Virus record (IMG/VR): IMGVR_UViG_3300037424_001177 | Coordinates: 64,001-128,000 of that record | Reading direction: 5' to 3' (one strand) | Length of the DNA stretch: 64,000 bases | Origin: a virus | Shown: positions 11,632 through 59,741 of the stretch, in pieces | Layout: each line of letters opens with the position of its first letter | How positions within the stretch are numbered: the first letter of the stretch is position 1 | Translations under genes and position numbers: made by a program | Notes under the pieces: generated by a model | Database searches by the model: none | What the model was told of the DNA's origin: nothing | Seen by the model: the letters and a program-made list of their open reading frames with translations, nothing else

Positions 11632-11640
11632 GGTGTTGTT

Positions 11641-11681
11641 GTTTCAATTTATCCGCCATCTCACAATGAGGCGACGGAAAA
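11641..11681 (-). CRISPR. Solitary CRISPR-repeat-like unit, copy 1
   Basis: Minus strand TTTT-CCGTCGCCTCA-TTG-TGAGATGGCGG-ATAA-ATTGAAAC: hairpin plus canonical 8-nt handle. Homologous to 45180 and 59123. Confidence 0.6.
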
Positions 11682-11684
11682 CTC

Positions 11685-11713
11685 AACTTAGCAGAAGGAA
11701 TCTTGCGTCACAA
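11685..11713 (-). promoter_or_regulatory. Sigma70-type promoter driving repeat unit 1
   Basis: Minus strand TTGTGA (11713-11708), 17 bp, TGc, TAAGTT (11690-11685); same spacing in all three copies. Confidence 0.6.
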
Positions 11714-11751
11714 GCAACTCCTTCTTTCTGTGTCTGAAGAAGAGGAAACCT

Positions 11752-22000: not shown

Positions 22001-25000
22001 TTTCAAAATCTTGTCCGTACCGTCTTCGACGCAAGCACGCTTGCAAGCAAGCTTTACTGTTCCGGAGCCGTCCAGCGGAACCTTGTTTTGGGAACTCTTT
22101 GATCCGCGCAACGGCGAGATTGCAGATGATCCTTCCGATGTTGAAGTCATCGTCAACGGCAATCTTGTCGTTCCGGATGCTGTGATCGGATTGTTGGGTC
22201 AGGTGGTCTTGTCTACGACTCCTGACCCTGACGACTCCGTGTCTGTGAACTACAGCTGGTGTTGCAACCCGACCGTAGAAATTCGGCGTTTGAACTCGAA
22301 GGAGTTTCGCCTCAACAACGTCTCGCCACGATCAGCTCACGTTTATCAGTACCGAAATGTTTTGATTCGTCCGAGTGACTACACACCCCTCGACATCTCG
22401 GCACCTCTTGATCCTCCTCAGCTTCGGGAATTACACTATCGAGCCTACGAAAGAGCCTACACTCCGGTCCTGAACGATCCGACGCTTCTACTGCTCAACA
22501 GCCCGACGCATCGAATCGCATACCCCCCGGAAACACGAATTGTCAGCGAGTTGTTCGTAAGCTACGAAGCTACAACATTACCTGAGCTTGACACTGTCCC
22601 TTGGGTGCGCCGTGGAACAGGCATCGCGAGCACGTCTGCTGGCGTCTTAACGGTGACCGATGCGTCGACAGGAGCTTTCCCTTTTGGGCAGCCGATTTTC
22701 TGGACTCGAACAGTCGATACGTCCTTCCCTCACATCCTAGCTCTTTCCTGGCGCTTTCAGATCACTTCTGCGACGCTCGACGGCGTCTTTACAGGAGTGG
22801 CCGCTGGCTTCACTGAAGATGTCTCGGCTTTCGTAATCGGGTTTTTGGATGTTGCCGGCGTCAAGAAAATTGGACTTTTGAAACGTGGATCTGCTGACAA
22901 TCCTGCCTTAGTGTCTGCGTGGACAGGAGGAGTCGACACACTCGGCAACCCAACCAATCTGCCTGCCAATTTTGATTGGAGTGTGTTGCACAGTTACAGA
23001 TTCTACCGTGACCTCTCCGGGACAGTTCGGCTCTATGTCGATGGTGAAGTTGTTGAGACCCTGCGTATTCTTGCTGTTGAAGCCCCGTTTCTGGAAGAGC
23101 TGGCTGCACCATTCGACGAAGTCCAGGATGTTTTCTTTGGTTCAATTTCTCGTCCTGCTGCGAGCGTGTCTGCGTGGGATTTCGTTCGGTATTTAGTCCT
23201 GCCGACCAATGCATTGCAGACTGCTCCGTCCAGTTTTGTGAGTTATGAGGCGAATGTCGAGCCTGAGGTCGATGTCAAACCGTGGATCCCAGTTGGTTTC
23301 CATGGAACGGAAACGATTCTAGCGACTAACACTCTGCTGCTTGATTCGACAAGCGCTACTGACGCTTCTACCGCTACGCAAGTTGGTTTGATAGGTGGTG
23401 ACTTCCGAGGCTTCGTGCGCCTGGAACCGTTGCTTACTTCAGCTTCGCAGTTCGTTCTTGACGTCGAAGTACAAGGCCGAACACAAACACACGGTGTCGA
23501 TCCGTACGGTTTGATGTTCGCTGTAGACGACAGTCAGCGGCTGACACAAGTCTGTTTTCTCGCTGACGTTTCGGCTCCAAAGTTTAGCTATGGAGGACGT
23601 TCTCTGCCTGAGGACTTCTCGCCTTACGTTTGGACTAGGACCGGCGGCAGTGCTGTTGCAATGGTGGGGCGTATTCTTCGTCTGACGGACGCTTCGGTCG
23701 CAGACGGGGTTCTCTACTTCATTGAAGACCTGGAACCCGTTCTCTCAGACCAGCGGGTGATTGCCTCAGGGATCGACTACATTTTCGAGTTTCGAGTTGA
23801 AGTGGTTTCTTACGTCATCGACGGCTCTGGTTTTGCAGGGGTCTTCACTCAAGCGTACGATGGGACCAGAGCGGTTGGTGTGCAATTCGAGGTTTTGGCA
23901 GGGATACGTTATGTGACGTTTTGTTCGGACGGCGTTCCCTTTGTTCCTGGACGTTTTGCATTCGATTGGTTCGATGGGGACCCTCACACATATCGTTTGT
24001 CGAAGAGTACGACAGGCGATTTGGTTTCACTGTTTATTGATGGGATATTTGTAGGATCACTTGCCTACAGCTCGTTTGCTGTTCCGGTCCCGGCTGACGC
24101 CATGGTTTCGTTCGGATCGGCAACACCTGCAAGTGTTGGATCGATTTCGGCGGTAGATTGGCACTACTGTAACGCTTGGCGTGTTCAGCTTGGTTTGCAA
24201 CGCTTCGTCGGCATCTGGAAGGGCTACGATCCTAACGCTTTAACGGGCTACCACACTTCGACCAAGATCACAGGGCGAAACGCCACTATCAATGGCAACG
24301 CTTTGGGAGATCCGATAGCTGACTTTTTCGGCGCAGGGGTAGTATCCGGTGATTTGTTGGTTGTTGATTCCGGCGCCAACAAGGGCGTGTACGAAGTTGC
24401 TGGTGTGAGTAGCTCAACGACTCTTACTATTACGTCGACGTGGCCACTTGCTCCATCGTTGGCTGACTACCGCATACTGCGTGAAACTGACTGGTCGGTT
24501 TCTCACAAGTATCGGTTGTCCAAGGACAGCACGGGTGAAGTCGATCTGTTTCTCGATACGGATACGGATCCACTGATCAGGATCAGCTACAGCTCTACTG
24601 ACTTGCCAGGTAGCAGTTCGGGGATCGTGTTGACGTTGTCAGCCACGTTACCCGCGATCGTGTTTGGTTCGTTCAGTCCAGAAAACCTGTGTCAATCGAG
24701 TTGGGACTACGTTCGATACGGAATCACTCGGAGCCCGACCGAGCTACGTATTGCTCCACATCATCAAGTCATCAACCAGTGGAACGTGATGGAGAGTCCT
24801 GAGCGCCTCTACACAGTTTTGCCTCATGAGCTGACAAGCTTCAAGTCTAGCTCGACCGGCATTGTTCCTAGGAAGGATCCTGACTTCTTAGCAGACCCTG
24901 GCTTGCCTGCTTGGACGCAACTTAATGAAGGTACGCCGTTGGTGCCGAGCACACAGACTTTTGAGACGCGTGCTCCTTACGTAGTCACAGAGTTCGTCTC

Positions 25001-45018: not shown

Positions 45019-45216
45019 GTTTCAATTTTTATTGGCCATTCGAAGGATGACGGATAAAGCTTAACCACTTTTAGCACCTGTTTTTTCAATTTATCCGCTG
45101 TCCTTGTCACCGGGGCCCGATAAAGCGTCTGAGGAGTCACCACGTCAGGACCGTCTATCCGATATTGGTACTCGTTCCAGTTTCAATTTATCCGCTGTCC
45201 TAAGACCAACGGAAAG
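45019..45216 (-). CRISPR. Degenerate mini-array: repeat (45180-45216), ~74-nt insert, partial repeat (45084-45104), ~31 nt, degenerate repeat (45019-45057)
   Basis: Minus strand CTTT-CCGTTGGTCTTAGGACAGCGG-ATAA-ATTGAAAC. 21-nt exact direct repeat at 45084-45104 and 45181-45201; third unit ends ATAAAAATTGAAAC. Confidence 0.6.
45106..45181 (-). repeat. Diverged copy of the 3' end of the adjacent lipoprotein gene (45280-45355)
   Basis: Ungapped alignment, 68/76 identical. Confidence 0.95.
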
Positions 45217-45219
45217 ACC

Positions 45220-45248
45220 AATTTAGCAGAGTGGTCTTTCCGTTGCAA
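45220..45248 (-). promoter_or_regulatory. Sigma70-type promoter with overlapping 14-bp inverted repeat
   Basis: Minus strand TTGCAA (45248-45243), 17 bp, TGc, TAAATT (45225-45220). Perfect IR CAACGGAAAGACCA (45207-45220) / TGGTCTTTCCGTTG (45232-45245). Confidence 0.65.
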
Positions 45249-45260
45249 GTGTTGAACACT

Positions 45261-55804: not shown

Positions 55805-56201
55805 GCGAGGCGAAATCTCAGCGTTGTTGGTTCAGTCCCACAACGGTATTTGGGAGTCAGAGTGGGATTCATTGCGTGGGACTATCTACGAAGGCTTGGT
55901 CACCAAGGTCGATTTTGAAATCTTAGAGCAAGCTCTTCAGGGGTGGAGTCGCCCCTTGTCAGAGGCCCTCGGTTTGCCGCCAGTCGGATCGATCAAAAAG
56001 TTACCTATTGAAGCGAAACAGTGCTCACAAAAACAAACCTGTCCGTTTCACGACAAGCATTGCCAAGCTGAGCATCGACAACGCCCGCCATGTTACATGC
56101 CCGGCGGTGTTGTAGGAGACGTGCAGGAGACATTGACGCGGGCTCTCGACCTCTGGAAGCTAGACGTCTACATTTTGGTGGTCGAACGCGATGGCATCTG
56201 A
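55773..56201 (+). CDS. Hypothetical Cys-containing protein
   Basis: C..K..CPFH...C...PPC cluster; overlaps both neighbours. Confidence 0.6.
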   Translation: MARQVKIPTHERGEISALLVQSHNGIWESEWDSLRGTIYEGLVTKVDFEILEQALQGWSRPLSEALGLPPVGSIKKLPIEAKQCSQKQTCPFHDKHCQAEHRQRPPCYMPGGVVGDVQETLTRALDLWKLDVYILVVERDGI

Positions 56202-59115
56202 AGACGACGACCTCTTGAGTTTTTTGGGACTCGTCGAAACTCCCAAAAAATCCGAACCAAAAAAGGCAATGACTCCTATTGCGGTGGGAGGTAACGCCGA
56301 AGCATTTCTAGCGTTGCAGAACGACATTGCGGACAAGGTCAAAGAAACTTCTCTACGTAAACGGTGGATGAAGTTTCATCGTTTCACTTTGGTGAAGACG
56401 GTCGAGGAAGTTCGTGCTTTGGTAGACCGTGCGCTAGCACATGGCCGCTGTTCCCTGGATCTTGAAACTGGAGGATTCGACAACCGCATTGACTACGTCG
56501 ACGGGCGTCCGAGAACCAAACATCAAATTGTAGGGTACGCCATTTCAGTTCGCGGACACGGACACTACATTCCGGTGCGTCACCACTACGACGCCAATTA
56601 CGAGGAGCGTGACCCAAACGTTCCTGTTGAGTCCGTGGAGCAAGAGATCACACGACTTTGCCGAGCATCCCAACCTGTCTTGACTCCGGAAGGGTTAGCC
56701 GACGATCCGTTAGGATCAAAGGCAATACAAGAACCTGGAAAGGTCATCGTCTATTTCGCCAATGCCAAGTTCGACCAGGAGTTTCTGTACCCTGTTACCG
56801 GCATCGACTTCTGGCATCCGTCGAGCTTTGAAGACGCGGAGCTTGCGATTTATGCTGTGCACTCTGACGCTGATCTCGGCTTGAAGGACAACGCTCTACG
56901 GTTTCTCAAGATCAAAGACCCTGAGACGAAGGAATACGTCCCGTATGAGATGATCAACTACGACGAGCTGTTTCCTCCCAACACGCCTCGTAGGGAGCGC
57001 AAGATTGCCACGCGCTATCCTGACGACGACAGTGACATCGTCGTCTACGGCTGCTCGGATGCTATTTGCACCGAATTGCTTTGCGAGCATCGCAAGACGG
57101 ATTGGGAACACACGCAGCCCGGTCTGGAGTATGATTATCGGGAGGTCGTCAGCGCTGTCATCGAGTCCAAGTACACGTTCACGTATCGTCTGGAGAAACA
57201 GACTGTACAGGTGATTCGTGTCATGGAGCGAAACCGCTCCAAGATTGATCGGGCAGAAATCCAAAGACTGTTAACTGAGGCTGAGGCCGAACTAGCGACG
57301 TTACTGACGGAAATACGAAAGGTTGGGATAGCGCGTGACAGGACCTTGTTCGCGGAACTGAACCCAGGATCGCCGAAGCAATTGTCGGATTTCTTGTTCT
57401 CGGAAAGAGGACTTGATCTAAAACCGAAACCGAATTTCACGGAGGCTAAGCAGCAATACGAGACCAACGCCAAGGTCCTCGAGAAGCTCGGTGACGCCCC
57501 AGGGGCCTCTAAGGTCCTGACCGACATCATCAAGTACAAGCAAATCGACAAGATCAAGGGCACCTATCTACAGGGGATGTTGGATACGTGTGATGACCAG
57601 GACCAACTGAGGTACAAGTTCAATCAGTTGGGGGCCATCACAGGTCGATTTACTGCACCCCAAGGTGATACTAGCGACGGCTACGCGGGAATCCCAATTC
57701 AGGGGATCCCTGTTCGAGACGATCCCAAAAAACCCAAGGTCGCACATTCGCTGCGGCGAGCCTTCATCGCACGTGACGGCTACACCTTGGTGAAGTGCGA
57801 CTACTCAGGGCAAGAGCTTCGAATTTCCACCAATCTGTCTGGCGAGGACGTGTGGATCAATGAGTTTTTGCACGGCACTGGCGATATCCATACGATCACA
57901 GCCAAGAACATCTTCGGTCCACACATCACCAAGAAAGATGAAGTCGAGCGAGACAAAGGCAAGCGCGTCAACTTCTCCATCTTGTATGGAGGTGGGATCA
58001 AGGCTGTTCAACGGAACGCAGGATGTGCGGAGCATGACGCTGCTCGCTGGATCGAACAGTTCCTAGCGGGGGTGCCCAAGATAGAGCAATGGATCAAGAA
58101 GCAACACGCGTTTGTCAAAGCCAACAAGGGTGTCTATTCGGCATTCCGTCGTTGGATTGAGGTTCCTGGTGCGGCCATCAAAGAGGGGGATCTTTCGTGT
58201 CAACGGTGTGGGCACTGTTTTACCCCGAAGAAAGCTGAGACAGAACCTTGTTCAAATTGCGGAGAGAAAATACGTCTAGCCGTAATTGACAAGAAAGAAG
58301 CCTGGTCAAGAAAGGGCTCAGCCGAACGCGAGTCCGTTAACTACCCTGTGCAGGCCACAGGAGCTGACATCATGAAAGTTGCTTTGGTGCTCCTCACTAA
58401 AGCATTTCGCAAGCTCAATTGGGACCGGTATTACGATCAGAATTGGAACCAACTCGGAGACGACCGGGTTCGTATGATTCTGACAGTGCACGACGAAATC
58501 GTGTTCGAGATCAAGCATCAACATTTGATGGAGGTGATTCCTGTCGTCATTGAGCTCATGGAATATCCGAGTCAGCTGCTACAATGGAAAGTCCCTTTAG
58601 TTGTCGATGTCTCACTGGGCCTGAACTGGGGCAGCAAGATCGCGTGGGACAAGGTGATTTCCAAGAAGACCCCTGTGCCAGAGTGGCTGGTGGAGTTCGT
58701 GACTCCAGACGCTTTGCCTGAGAAGATACCAGCCGGTCTACCACTGGTCCCGACGATTTCGTCAACTGCGACGACTTTTACTCCGCCTGCTGCTTCTGTC
58801 TCGACGGTTCGTGCCGCGTCGCCGGTAGACCCCTTGCCAAAGACCGCGACAAATGGTATCCAAAAACCAGTCGCGAAAAAAATTGCTCGATTCGTACTGT
58901 GCCAGACGTACCTCACAGAAGCTTCTGTGAGACTGACCTATGAGGCGGTGGCTGGATCGCTCCAACCTGGAGGGGATGTGTTATTGTGTCTGGTCGATCA
59001 GCACGATAACGTGCTGATCGACCCTTTGGAGAAACCGATACCGATTGACCCTGTATGTTTTGGTCACAAGATGGCGGATCGCGGGTTGGGTCCTGTAACT
59101 TACGTGCTGACTTGA
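56191..59115 (+). CDS. polA: Family A DNA polymerase with 3'-5' exonuclease
   Basis: ExoI DLET, ExoII NAKFD, ExoIII YGCSD; TGRF; motif A DYSGQELRI, motif B R..GK.VNFSILYG, motif C TVHDEIV. Confidence 0.95.
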   Translation: MASEDDDLLSFLGLVETPKKSEPKKAMTPIAVGGNAEAFLALQNDIADKVKETSLRKRWMKFHRFTLVKTVEEVRALVDRALAHGRCSLDLETGGFDNRIDYVDGRPRTKHQIVGYAISVRGHGHYIPVRHHYDANYEERDPNVPVESVEQEITRLCRASQPVLTPEGLADDPLGSKAIQEPGKVIVYFANAKFDQEFLYPVTGIDFWHPSSFEDAELAIYAVHSDADLGLKDNALRFLKIKDPETKEYVPYEMINYDELFPPNTPRRERKIATRYPDDDSDIVVYGCSDAICTELLCEHRKTDWEHTQPGLEYDYREVVSAVIESKYTFTYRLEKQTVQVIRVMERNRSKIDRAEIQRLLTEAEAELATLLTEIRKVGIARDRTLFAELNPGSPKQLSDFLFSERGLDLKPKPNFTEAKQQYETNAKVLEKLGDAPGASKVLTDIIKYKQIDKIKGTYLQGMLDTCDDQDQLRYKFNQLGAITGRFTAPQGDTSDGYAGIPIQGIPVRDDPKKPKVAHSLRRAFIARDGYTLVKCDYSGQELRISTNLSGEDVWINEFLHGTGDIHTITAKNIFGPHITKKDEVERDKGKRVNFSILYGGGIKAVQRNAGCAEHDAARWIEQFLAGVPKIEQWIKKQHAFVKANKGVYSAFRRWIEVPGAAIKEGDLSCQRCGHCFTPKKAETEPCSNCGEKIRLAVIDKKEAWSRKGSAERESVNYPVQATGADIMKVALVLLTKAFRKLNWDRYYDQNWNQLGDDRVRMILTVHDEIVFEIKHQHLMEVIPVVIELMEYPSQLLQWKVPLVVDVSLGLNWGSKIAWDKVISKKTPVPEWLVEFVTPDALPEKIPAGLPLVPTISSTATTFTPPAASVSTVRAASPVDPLPKTATNGIQKPVAKKIARFVLCQTYLTEASVRLTYEAVAGSLQPGGDVLLCLVDQHDNVLIDPLEKPIPIDPVCFGHKMADRGLGPVTYVLT

Positions 59116-59122
59116 CGCCATG

Positions 59123-59161
59123 GTTTCAATTTATCCCCCATCTAACGAAGACGACGGAAAA
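59123..59161 (-). CRISPR. Solitary CRISPR-repeat-like unit, copy 3
   Basis: Minus strand TTTT-CCGTCGTCT-TCGTT-AGATGGGGG-ATAA-ATTGAAAC. Cassette flanked by the 11-bp direct repeat TGACGCCATGG. Confidence 0.6.
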
Positions 59162-59164
59162 CTC

Positions 59165-59193
59165 AACTTAGCAGAAGTAATCTTTCGTCACAA
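59165..59193 (-). promoter_or_regulatory. Sigma70-type promoter driving repeat unit 3
   Basis: TTGTGA (59193-59188), 17 bp, TGc, TAAGTT (59170-59165). 59152-59203 is 50/52 identical to 11672-11723. Confidence 0.6.
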
Positions 59194-59216
59194 GCAACTC
59201 CTTACTTTCTGACGCC

Positions 59217-59741
59217 ATGGCGAAGCAAGACTACCTCCGGCTCTGCAACGACCACAATGTCTCTCACGAGGACTTCACGTTGCAGTTCTGTTCTCGTTGT
59301 CAGCAGGCGGAGTGCTCTCGCAGTCAGCATGGAAGATCCAGATTTGATCAGCGCGTCCTCTCCTGGGAGAGTCGTCTCTTTACGGGGGTGTCTCGCATGT
59401 CCCAAGACGACAGCCGGTACTCTGAAATCACGGCCAAGCATTTTGTCGAGGTCGAGCAGCCCAGATCAGAGTGGGTGGATCCTAGGGAAGTCCCTTCCAC
59501 GACGACTATCTCGATTCCTGCGCCCAATGTACATACTGACGTTTCGGAACCTGAACCGGTTGTACAGGTGACCGACCTTGACCCGGTTGCACGGATCCCC
59601 AGTTACAACACACCTGTGCGCCAAGGCCAAATGATCGGCACGCCGATAACAACGCCGAGCGTCAAGGCTGATCCGTGGGAAGCCCCAATCAAGAGCAATG
59701 AGCGGATTGTGAAGCCTGGAGCCAAGATTAGGTTTCAGTGA
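59217..59741 (+). CDS. Hypothetical protein with N-terminal Cys cluster
   Basis: C...FCSRC...CSRS followed by a Pro-rich tail. Confidence 0.7.
   Translation: MAKQDYLRLCNDHNVSHEDFTLQFCSRCQQAECSRSQHGRSRFDQRVLSWESRLFTGVSRMSQDDSRYSEITAKHFVEVEQPRSEWVDPREVPSTTTISIPAPNVHTDVSEPEPVVQVTDLDPVARIPSYNTPVRQGQMIGTPITTPSVKADPWEAPIKSNERIVKPGAKIRFQ

Follow-up and report, generated by a model that had tools for sequence, protein, structure and literature searches.

The 64,000-nt window analysed here (bases 64001-128000 of the 159-kb IMG/VR phage record IMGVR_UViG_3300037424_001177, a partial phage genome, hereafter G000) carries an 87-bp non-coding cassette, cassette B, between the family A DNA polymerase gene polA and the gene that follows it. 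Judged by comparison of the filled and the empty allele, the cassette was inserted at polA after the split of G000 from its nearest sampled relative, G001 (IMGVR_UViG_3300036760_000522), a 301.5-kb record with terminal repeats that is collinear with G000 at ~90% nucleotide identity. We consider it probable that the cassette is a non-autonomous unit of promoter, hairpin and start codon, resembling the promoter-early stem-loops (PeSLs) of T4-type phages, which was inserted antisense behind polA and was spread by the phage's own recombination and replication machinery. The phage group concerned comprises huge phages with genomes of 300-450 kb. Coordinates refer to the window unless prefixed, and the prefix g denotes a position in the full G000 record. 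The polA junction is built up as follows:

56191-59115, plus strand: polA, 974 aa (Pfam DNA_pol_A, E 4e-74), with its stop codon TGA at 59113-59115.
59113-59122, plus strand: left copy of the duplicated junction TGACGCCATG (polA stop, CGCC and ATG), which is single in G001.
59123-59209, plus strand: cassette B, 87 bp, non-coding (nhmmer E 1.4e-21; covariance model R1 86.6 bits), absent from G001.
59210-59219, plus strand: right copy of TGACGCCATG, whose ATG at 59217-59219 starts the 174-aa gene.
59217-59741, plus strand: conserved cysteine-rich gene of 174 aa, which follows polA in 17 phage records (synteny).

The 11-mer TGACGCCATGG is present without mismatch at 59113-59123, where it holds the polA stop, and at 59210-59220, where it holds the ATG at 59217, exactly as the initial annotation had reported. 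In G001, whose polA orthologue is 94% identical over its full length, the junction reads ...GTGCTGACT-TGACGCCATG-TCGAAGCAAG...; the repeat is single there, the cassette is missing, and stop and start are 4 nt apart. The alignment blocks of the two genomes overlap here by exactly 10 bp in G001. Since the repeat is followed by a T in G001, the G at 59123 already belongs to the cassette as its first base, and the duplication comprises 10 bp (11 at most). The cassette begins with the head GTTTCAATTTATCC on its low-coordinate side and ends with the tail ...CAAGCAACTCCTTACTTTC on its high-coordinate side. The N-termini of ten homologues of the 174-aa protein align to the ATG at 59217-59219, which is therefore the true start of this gene. 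Exact direct repeats of at least 11 bp within 150 nt are expected ~2.3 times per 64-kb window and were observed 13 times. The TGACGCCATGG repeat alone is not improbable; it is the context, namely the cassette between the two copies and the junctions of the relatives, that makes the repeat real.

The pair of polA and the 174-aa gene is kept in 16 further huge phages (27-48% protein identity), with junctions that range from an ATGA overlap to 42 nt and with the cassette in none of the 16. The empty allele of G001, taken together with the cassette-free junctions of these distant relatives, argues that the filled state is derived. The filled/empty polymorphism that had been forecast for related phages is present, with a single TGACGCCATG in the empty allele, and the proposal that the cassette is or was mobile is borne out; the opposite case, in which all relatives carry the cassette, is not what was found. 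The reverse history, in which the cassette was ancestral at polA and was lost in G001 by deletion between the 10-bp repeats, would restore the exact empty sequence, and deletions of this kind, across short direct repeats, are frequent in these genomes. We regard this history as very unlikely, given the compact cassette-free junction in the 16 more distant relatives; moreover, the two 10-bp copies must still stem from a duplication at an insertion.

A third exact copy of TGACGCCATGG is located at 24095 inside an open reading frame (ORF) of 2212 aa, where the left junction of cassette B is matched exactly over 15 nt (TGACGCCATGGTTTC, 24095-24109). The 11-mer at 24095 is conserved in G001 without an indel, and this third copy is probably native coding sequence and a product of chance.

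Cassette B belongs to a small family. A profile search (nhmmer) and covariance model R1 gave the same set of full copies, five in G000, named G (g7124), A (g75641, window 11641), C (g109180, window 45180), B (g123123, the polA junction) and F (g142991), and three in G001 (positions 268529, 271865 and 174283). Besides cassette B, the window holds:

11641-11727, plus strand: copy A, the closest relative of B, between two plus-strand genes and with a degenerate flanking repeat of ~17 bp (TTTCTGTGT[G/C]TGA...).
45019-45104, plus strand: decayed copy D (45019-45082) and head-only copy E (45083-45104).
45180-45258, plus strand: copy C, between two minus-strand genes and with a perfect 12-bp inverted repeat around its -10 box.

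The copy at G001:268529 is the orthologue of copy G. Of the seven loci one is shared, four are filled in G000 only and two in G001 only, and 6/7 thus differ between the two phages; decayed or head-only pieces are present in both genomes. At locus A, the empty site of G001 reads TGAGGTG and AACTATG on the two sides of the insertion point. Blocks common to the family are the head GTTTCAATTT(A/C)TCCGCC, GACGGAAA, TTAGCAG and CAAG. The family members are found at gene junctions or gene ends and both neighbouring genes remain readable, in agreement with the earlier claim that the cassette lands in junctions without damaging them. The similarity between B and A begins exactly at 59123. The identity blocks of 20/21 and 50/52 nt that had been given for this pair are essentially right, and overall identity is ~90% over 83 nt. 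The conclusion drawn from them, recent copying within the genome, holds only in part: the divergence of A from B is ~10%, about the same as that between G000 and G001.

The covariance model found no cassette copy in three complete genomes of more distant relatives, and the head pattern was absent from five relatives. Pattern scans of viral contigs, metagenomes and 185,579 cellular genomes returned chance or coding matches only and no copies. As far as these searches reach, the cassette family is found only in G000 and G001 and is confined to this huge-phage lineage. All full copies have one genomic orientation, and all are located in one genome arm where genes mostly run one way. Because all loci are in this one arm, the shared orientation is not assignable to replication and is not separable from gene direction.

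Three further observations concern fragments of the family. At 45019-45258, G000 has D, E and C and, in addition, 76 bp copied from the 3' end of the neighbouring gene. In the same place G001 has an unrelated segment of 282 bp (G001:164655-164937), with coding capacity for a protein of 75 aa in which two stretches are hydrophobic. Compared with the gene end of G000 itself, the displaced 76-bp copy is the better match to the G001 allele; a simple target duplication as the source of this repeat beside C was ruled out by the wrong order of the parts. A 38-nt fragment consisting of the head and one arm of the cassette is in frame within an acidic ORF of 264 aa (...GPVSISPPQNEGDGETE...) in both phages (G000:C1:30982-31019 and G001:245400-245437). 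Finally, a degenerate copy at G001:C1:120158-120238 (model E 0.025) is inverted relative to all others, and the G000 sequence is different there. Its end reads GGAGAAATTGAAATG, from which a gene of the main coding strand takes its Shine-Dalgarno (SD) sequence and its ATG.

On the minus strand, antisense to polA, the cassette has the following parts:

59165-59193, minus strand: putative sigma-70-like promoter, read from the sequence, with a -35 box TTGTGA (59188-59193), a 17-nt spacer ending in TGC and a -10 box TAAGTT (59165-59170).
59125-59166, minus strand: 42-nt hairpin of the minus-strand RNA with the end GGGGGAUAAAUUGAA (dG -13.9 kcal/mol, z -3.4).
59123-59139, minus strand: cassette end GGGGGATAAATTGAAAC, with a stretch like a ribosome-binding site (RBS) and a TTG at 59127-59129, the most conserved block of the family.

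We propose that the cassette would comprise a promoter whose -10 box is bracketed by an imperfect inverted repeat, a stable leader hairpin and then, at the very end, the RBS-like GGA(T/G)AAA and the TTG. Other promoter-like blocks are found in C (TTGCAA-17-TAAATT) and at G001:174283 (TTGCTA-17-TAGTTT), and TTGnnA at 17-nt spacing is kept in 5/7 copies. The pattern TTGnnA-N14-TGnTAnnnT occurs at four sites in the whole 159-kb G000 record, all of them in cassettes. Similarity between the copies fades just past the -35 block. The inverted repeat around the -10 box, perfect over 12 bp in C, is imperfect in A and B (~8-9/12). The last 44 nt of the B minus strand are taken up by the hairpin, with -13.9 kcal/mol; the value for copy A is -15.8 kcal/mol (z -3.6). 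When the whole of B is folded, the minus strand reaches -20.9 kcal/mol and the plus strand only -8.7 kcal/mol (z -0.2). The U-G and G-U pairs of the consensus hairpin would be mismatches on the plus strand. The conserved G-U pairs and a hairpin that is stable on the minus strand only therefore argue for the minus-strand reading.

The minus-strand end of the cassette reads GGCGGA(T/G)AAATTGAAAC in the family, and locus F illustrates how such an end can serve a gene. There the cassette is located between two minus-strand genes and splits the downstream gene after codon 8: the peptide MIYDNIFE is followed by a TGA from the cassette tail, and the TTG restarts the gene in frame (TTG-AAA-YDNIFELLEA...), with codons 3-8 supplied by an 18-bp duplication. 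At the same locus G001 retains the cassette end alone, as RBS and TTG start of the gene. The SD sequence and start at the 3' end serve a gene at F, in its G001 remnant and at G001:120158-120238; they do not at B, A, G and the two G001-specific copies, which are directed away from genes.

Several other roles were tried and rejected. A plus-strand promoter, terminator or leader for the downstream gene does not agree with the weak fold of that strand, and no terminator-like or promoter-like site was found in the copies. No known RNA family reached its gathering score in the window, where E-value thresholds gave noise only, and the tRNA search found none.

A number of points weigh against the PeSL-like reading. 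The promoter matches only 7-8 of the 12 sigma-70 consensus positions (7/12 in B), and a generic promoter scan at 9 of 12 positions reports no site in the cassette. Covariation support for the hairpin is minimal: across 7 distinct sequences, a single pair shows a compensatory change. At five of the seven full loci, polA included, the cassette points against the neighbouring genes, which is odd for a regulatory cassette. Furthermore, G000 is partial, so that a trans-acting enzyme could be encoded in the missing part.

Because the cassette is antisense at polA, any transcript driven by it runs into the polA 3' end. The polA coding sequence contains a perfect 14-bp inverted repeat (GGTCGATCAGCACG/CGTGCTGATCGACC, 58992-59023) with a 4-nt loop, ~100 nt from the cassette. 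In the cassette-free G001, three synonymous differences in the arms break or weaken 3/14 pairs. This inverted repeat could be a stop or processing site for the predicted antisense transcript of the cassette. Closer to the junction (59059-59079), the polA 3' end contains TTTGGTCACAAG, which is 11/12 identical to TTTCGTCACAAG of the cassette, followed directly by (A)GATGGCGGAT, which is 10/11 complementary to ATCCCCCATCT of the cassette. Both matches are also present in the empty G001 allele, with p ~0.1-0.4 each; they are possible microhomologies, or chance.

The site behind polA appears to tolerate the insert for reasons of geometry. The duplication has the first base of the polA stop codon and the last base of the ATG as its limits, and since this junction is duplicated, polA retains its stop and the 174-aa gene retains its ATG together with the same 7 nt upstream. 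No SD sequence precedes the 174-aa gene in either allele, and the gene therefore probably depends on re-initiation after polA. The 87 nt of cassette B are exactly 29 codons and are open in the frame of the left ATG:

59120-59212, plus strand: 30-codon 'relay' ORF (MVSIYPPSNEDDGKLNLAEVIFRHKQLLTF, then the stop), opened by the left-copy ATG and closed by the right-copy TGA.

Ribosomes leaving polA would re-initiate on the relay ORF, translate its 30 codons, terminate 4 nt short of the genuine ATG and start there once more. The relay ORF would in this way reproduce the native re-initiation geometry and preserve translational coupling. Here, too, a counterpoint has to be named, as the relay ORF may be chance: an open in-frame insert is expected in about 1 of 9 cases. 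At locus A, a duplicated stop likewise closes a bridging ORF (11633-11737). Between A and B there is a 2-nt indel that leaves each of them open in its own frame, which is suggestive and no more.

If the 30-aa peptide of the relay ORF were itself the product of a functional micro-gene, one would expect an ORF that is open and exactly in frame, as it is, and peptide-like stretches such as DGK-NLAE are indeed common to copies, with some synonymous-looking differences between B and C. However, the copies are open in different frames, are mutually frame-shifted or carry stops, and two of them are antisense to local genes. Conservation follows the minus-strand promoter and hairpin blocks and not codons. 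We hold a functional micro-gene to be highly improbable; a conserved micro-protein was ruled out by the differing open frames and stops among the copies.

Returning to the PeSL-like cassette, the comparison with G001 shows an insertion after the split of the two phages: a copy, probably a descendant of that at locus A, entered the 4 nt that separate the polA stop from the next ATG, and TGACGCCATG was duplicated. The copying might have proceeded by template switching or short-homology recombination of the phage machinery, without a dedicated transposase. The flanking repeats measure 10 bp at B, ~17 bp and degenerate at A, and 18 bp and exact at F, and they are missing at the two G001-specific insertions. 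Terminal inverted repeats were not found, the ends GTTTCAATTTATCC... and ...CTCCTTACTTTC being not complementary. The head end is sharp to within 1 nt; the tail is ragged and differs between the subfamilies A/B and C/F. Neither RVT_1 nor Y1_Tnp domains were found in G000 or G001, with the limit that G000 is partial and the absence of a reverse transcriptase (RT) is therefore unproven. Many unrelated indels between G000 and G001 also have junction overlaps of 6-29 bp. Variable repeats, lack of terminal inverted repeats, no transposase or RT found and the overlaps at other indels together favour the phage's own machinery, which is most likely the agent of the spread. The tail of B (...CTCCTTACTTTC, followed by TG) carries TTTC(TG), and at locus A these bases fall within the duplicated target. 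This gives B the look of a copy from an A-type donor that took along a few bases of donor flank and was rejoined at a TG microhomology.

The same data can be viewed as the trace of a non-autonomous transposon of the miniature inverted-repeat transposable element (MITE) type, which a transposase from the unsampled part of the phage or from the host would have moved, the 10-bp repeat being the target duplication of a staggered cut. The clean insertion at polA with its perfect 10-bp duplication and empty allele, the exact 18-bp repeat at locus F, the sharp and conserved head end and the single orientation of all full copies are in line with this. A transposase should, however, leave a duplication of fixed length, and the lengths of 10, ~17 and 18 bp and the two insertions without any do not fit, nor do the missing terminal inverted repeats and the ragged tail. 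No RT or Y1 transposase was found, and the sole transposon-type gene is TnpB, a family whose insertions are not known to make duplications and which is absent from G001, where unique cassette copies are present. A MITE-like element is in our view unlikely.

This TnpB gene belongs to a TnpB-only insertion sequence element of 1.2 kb at G000:C1:37747-38953, 26 kb before the window start, which is located at an overlapping stop/start junction (ATGA). The gene itself (g37747-38901) encodes 384 aa (Cas12f1-like_TNB, E 5e-24), is 85 kb away from cassette B and is the sole RNA-guided nuclease gene. G001 lacks the element and has the empty site GAAATGAAATGAAGG; in G000 both neighbouring genes are intact. 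Outside the window, at G000:C1:44661-44790, a 128-bp insertion that is missing in G001 starts with the first 42 nt of tnpB (ATGATCCGAACCTTCCG...) and contains a hairpin with an 11-bp stem. It has the look of a miniature form derived from the TnpB element.

The initial annotation had regarded the cassette as a source of guide RNA. In such an RNA-guided element, hairpin and own flank would form the guide, and a Cas protein of the host or the TnpB of the phage would cut the empty alleles of rivals and thereby promote homing. The minus-strand RNA would indeed consist of the hairpin and AUAAAUUGAAAC followed by the flank, the population has empty alleles, and the ends GUUUCAAU...AAAAC faintly resemble the RNA family CRISPR-DR2. 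The predicted guide, the flank antisense to the polA 3' end, does match the empty allele, but any insertion shows such a match, and the filled allele also contains the full target. CRISPR-DR2 scores 15 bits, where the gathering score is 37 (E ~3), and does so through the end motifs alone; the scan of the 185,579 cellular (prokaryote) genomes returned no array or relative but only single chance matches. The transcribed scaffold would measure only ~45 nt. An origin as TnpB omega-RNA or guide was ruled out: the cassette has no similarity to the 3' end or right end of the TnpB element beyond shuffled controls, and TnpB is confined to G000, whereas G001 also has polymorphic cassettes. We give RNA-guided homing next to no credence. 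A variant in which a homing unit without cas genes is served in trans by an effector elsewhere in the phage or in the host, and is then copied into the cut empty allele, would explain the 6/7 polymorphic loci, and we rate it as equally implausible.

A related idea is that the cassette is a solitary mimic of a CRISPR repeat, an RNA anti-CRISPR that soaks up Cas proteins of the host. On inspection of the sequence, the hairpin and the AUAAA-type tail behind it recall type I repeats. The match remains under the Rfam threshold, no host repeat was found, and the promoter-like blocks and the terminal start codon would have no explanation. We see hardly any chance that the cassette is such a mimic.

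Two other differences between the genomes are placed on record here. At 2678-2769, where the ORF 2054-2788 nears its 3' end, G001 lacks 90 bp, with a 15-bp junction overlap and a shortened C-terminus of the protein. Outside the window, at G000:C1:143403-143677, G000 has a gene-sized insertion relative to G001 with a 26-bp direct repeat on both sides. This repeat encodes the N-terminus MEAKRVVAR that is common to two adjacent minus-strand genes, and the insertion looks like recombination between conserved N-terminal tags.

Among known systems, TnpB elements of the IS200/IS605 type share with the cassette the logic that the initial annotation had proposed, an element end and its flank acting as guide against the empty site. 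They differ in that the ends have no sequence similarity and that the putative scaffold of the cassette is far too short. Correia elements, ERIC and the Rickettsia palindromic elements are bacterial MITEs or intergenic repeats that are co-transcribed or inserted in frame. Like them, the cassette is small, non-coding, hairpin-forming and dispersed and is tolerated at gene borders or in frame, and some of these elements also carry promoters. Classical MITEs, in contrast, have terminal inverted repeats and a transposase-made duplication of fixed length, and the cassette family has neither. MPME1 and MPME2 are described as 'ultra-small' mobile elements of mycobacteriophages (PMC5356059, PMC4351075). 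They resemble the cassette in being small, phage-borne and present or absent between close relatives. MPMEs are ~440 bp long, have inverted repeats and encode a small protein, whereas the cassette has 87 bp and no gene of its own.

In huge phages, the polA junction shows cleanly, in natural genomes, the states before and after the arrival of a very small mobile element: an 87-bp insert without a gene has entered a 4-nt gap behind the essential polymerase gene and has left both genes readable. The exact stop-to-start duplication and the in-frame insert of 29 codons suggest a rule for insertions that are tolerated by compact, translationally coupled operons. For annotation the cassette is a warning, since such units can resemble mini CRISPR arrays or guide RNAs and be neither.

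The closest parallel is found in the PeSLs (Arbiol et al. 2010, PMC2839356; Comeau et al. 2014, PMC4122927), which T4-type phages carry as mobile regulatory cassettes. PeSLs consist of a sigma-70-like promoter with N17 spacing, a stem-loop mostly between the boxes or over the -10 box, and the SD sequence and start of the next gene at the 3' end; they occupy sites where close relatives differ by indels, and no dedicated enzyme is known for their recombination (PMC2839356, PMC4122927). The cassette is likewise short and intergenic, with a putative promoter of N17 spacing, a stem-loop over the -10 box and, at its 3' end, an RBS-like stretch with a start codon that serves a gene at some of the loci. 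Both are repeated within a genome at sites that vary between close relatives, and for neither is a dedicated recombinase known. In contrast to PeSLs, the cassette occurs in unrelated huge phages, in few copies (3-5 per record), with a weaker promoter match and with variable short target duplications around several copies. It was inserted solo, without an accompanying ORFan, and most of its copies point against the neighbouring genes, which counts against the parallel. If the parallel holds, PeSL-like regulatory cassettes would not be confined to T4-type phages and could, beyond mediating gene swaps, insert alone with short target duplications. Taking likenesses and differences together, the cassette at polA is best read as a variant of the PeSL-type design.

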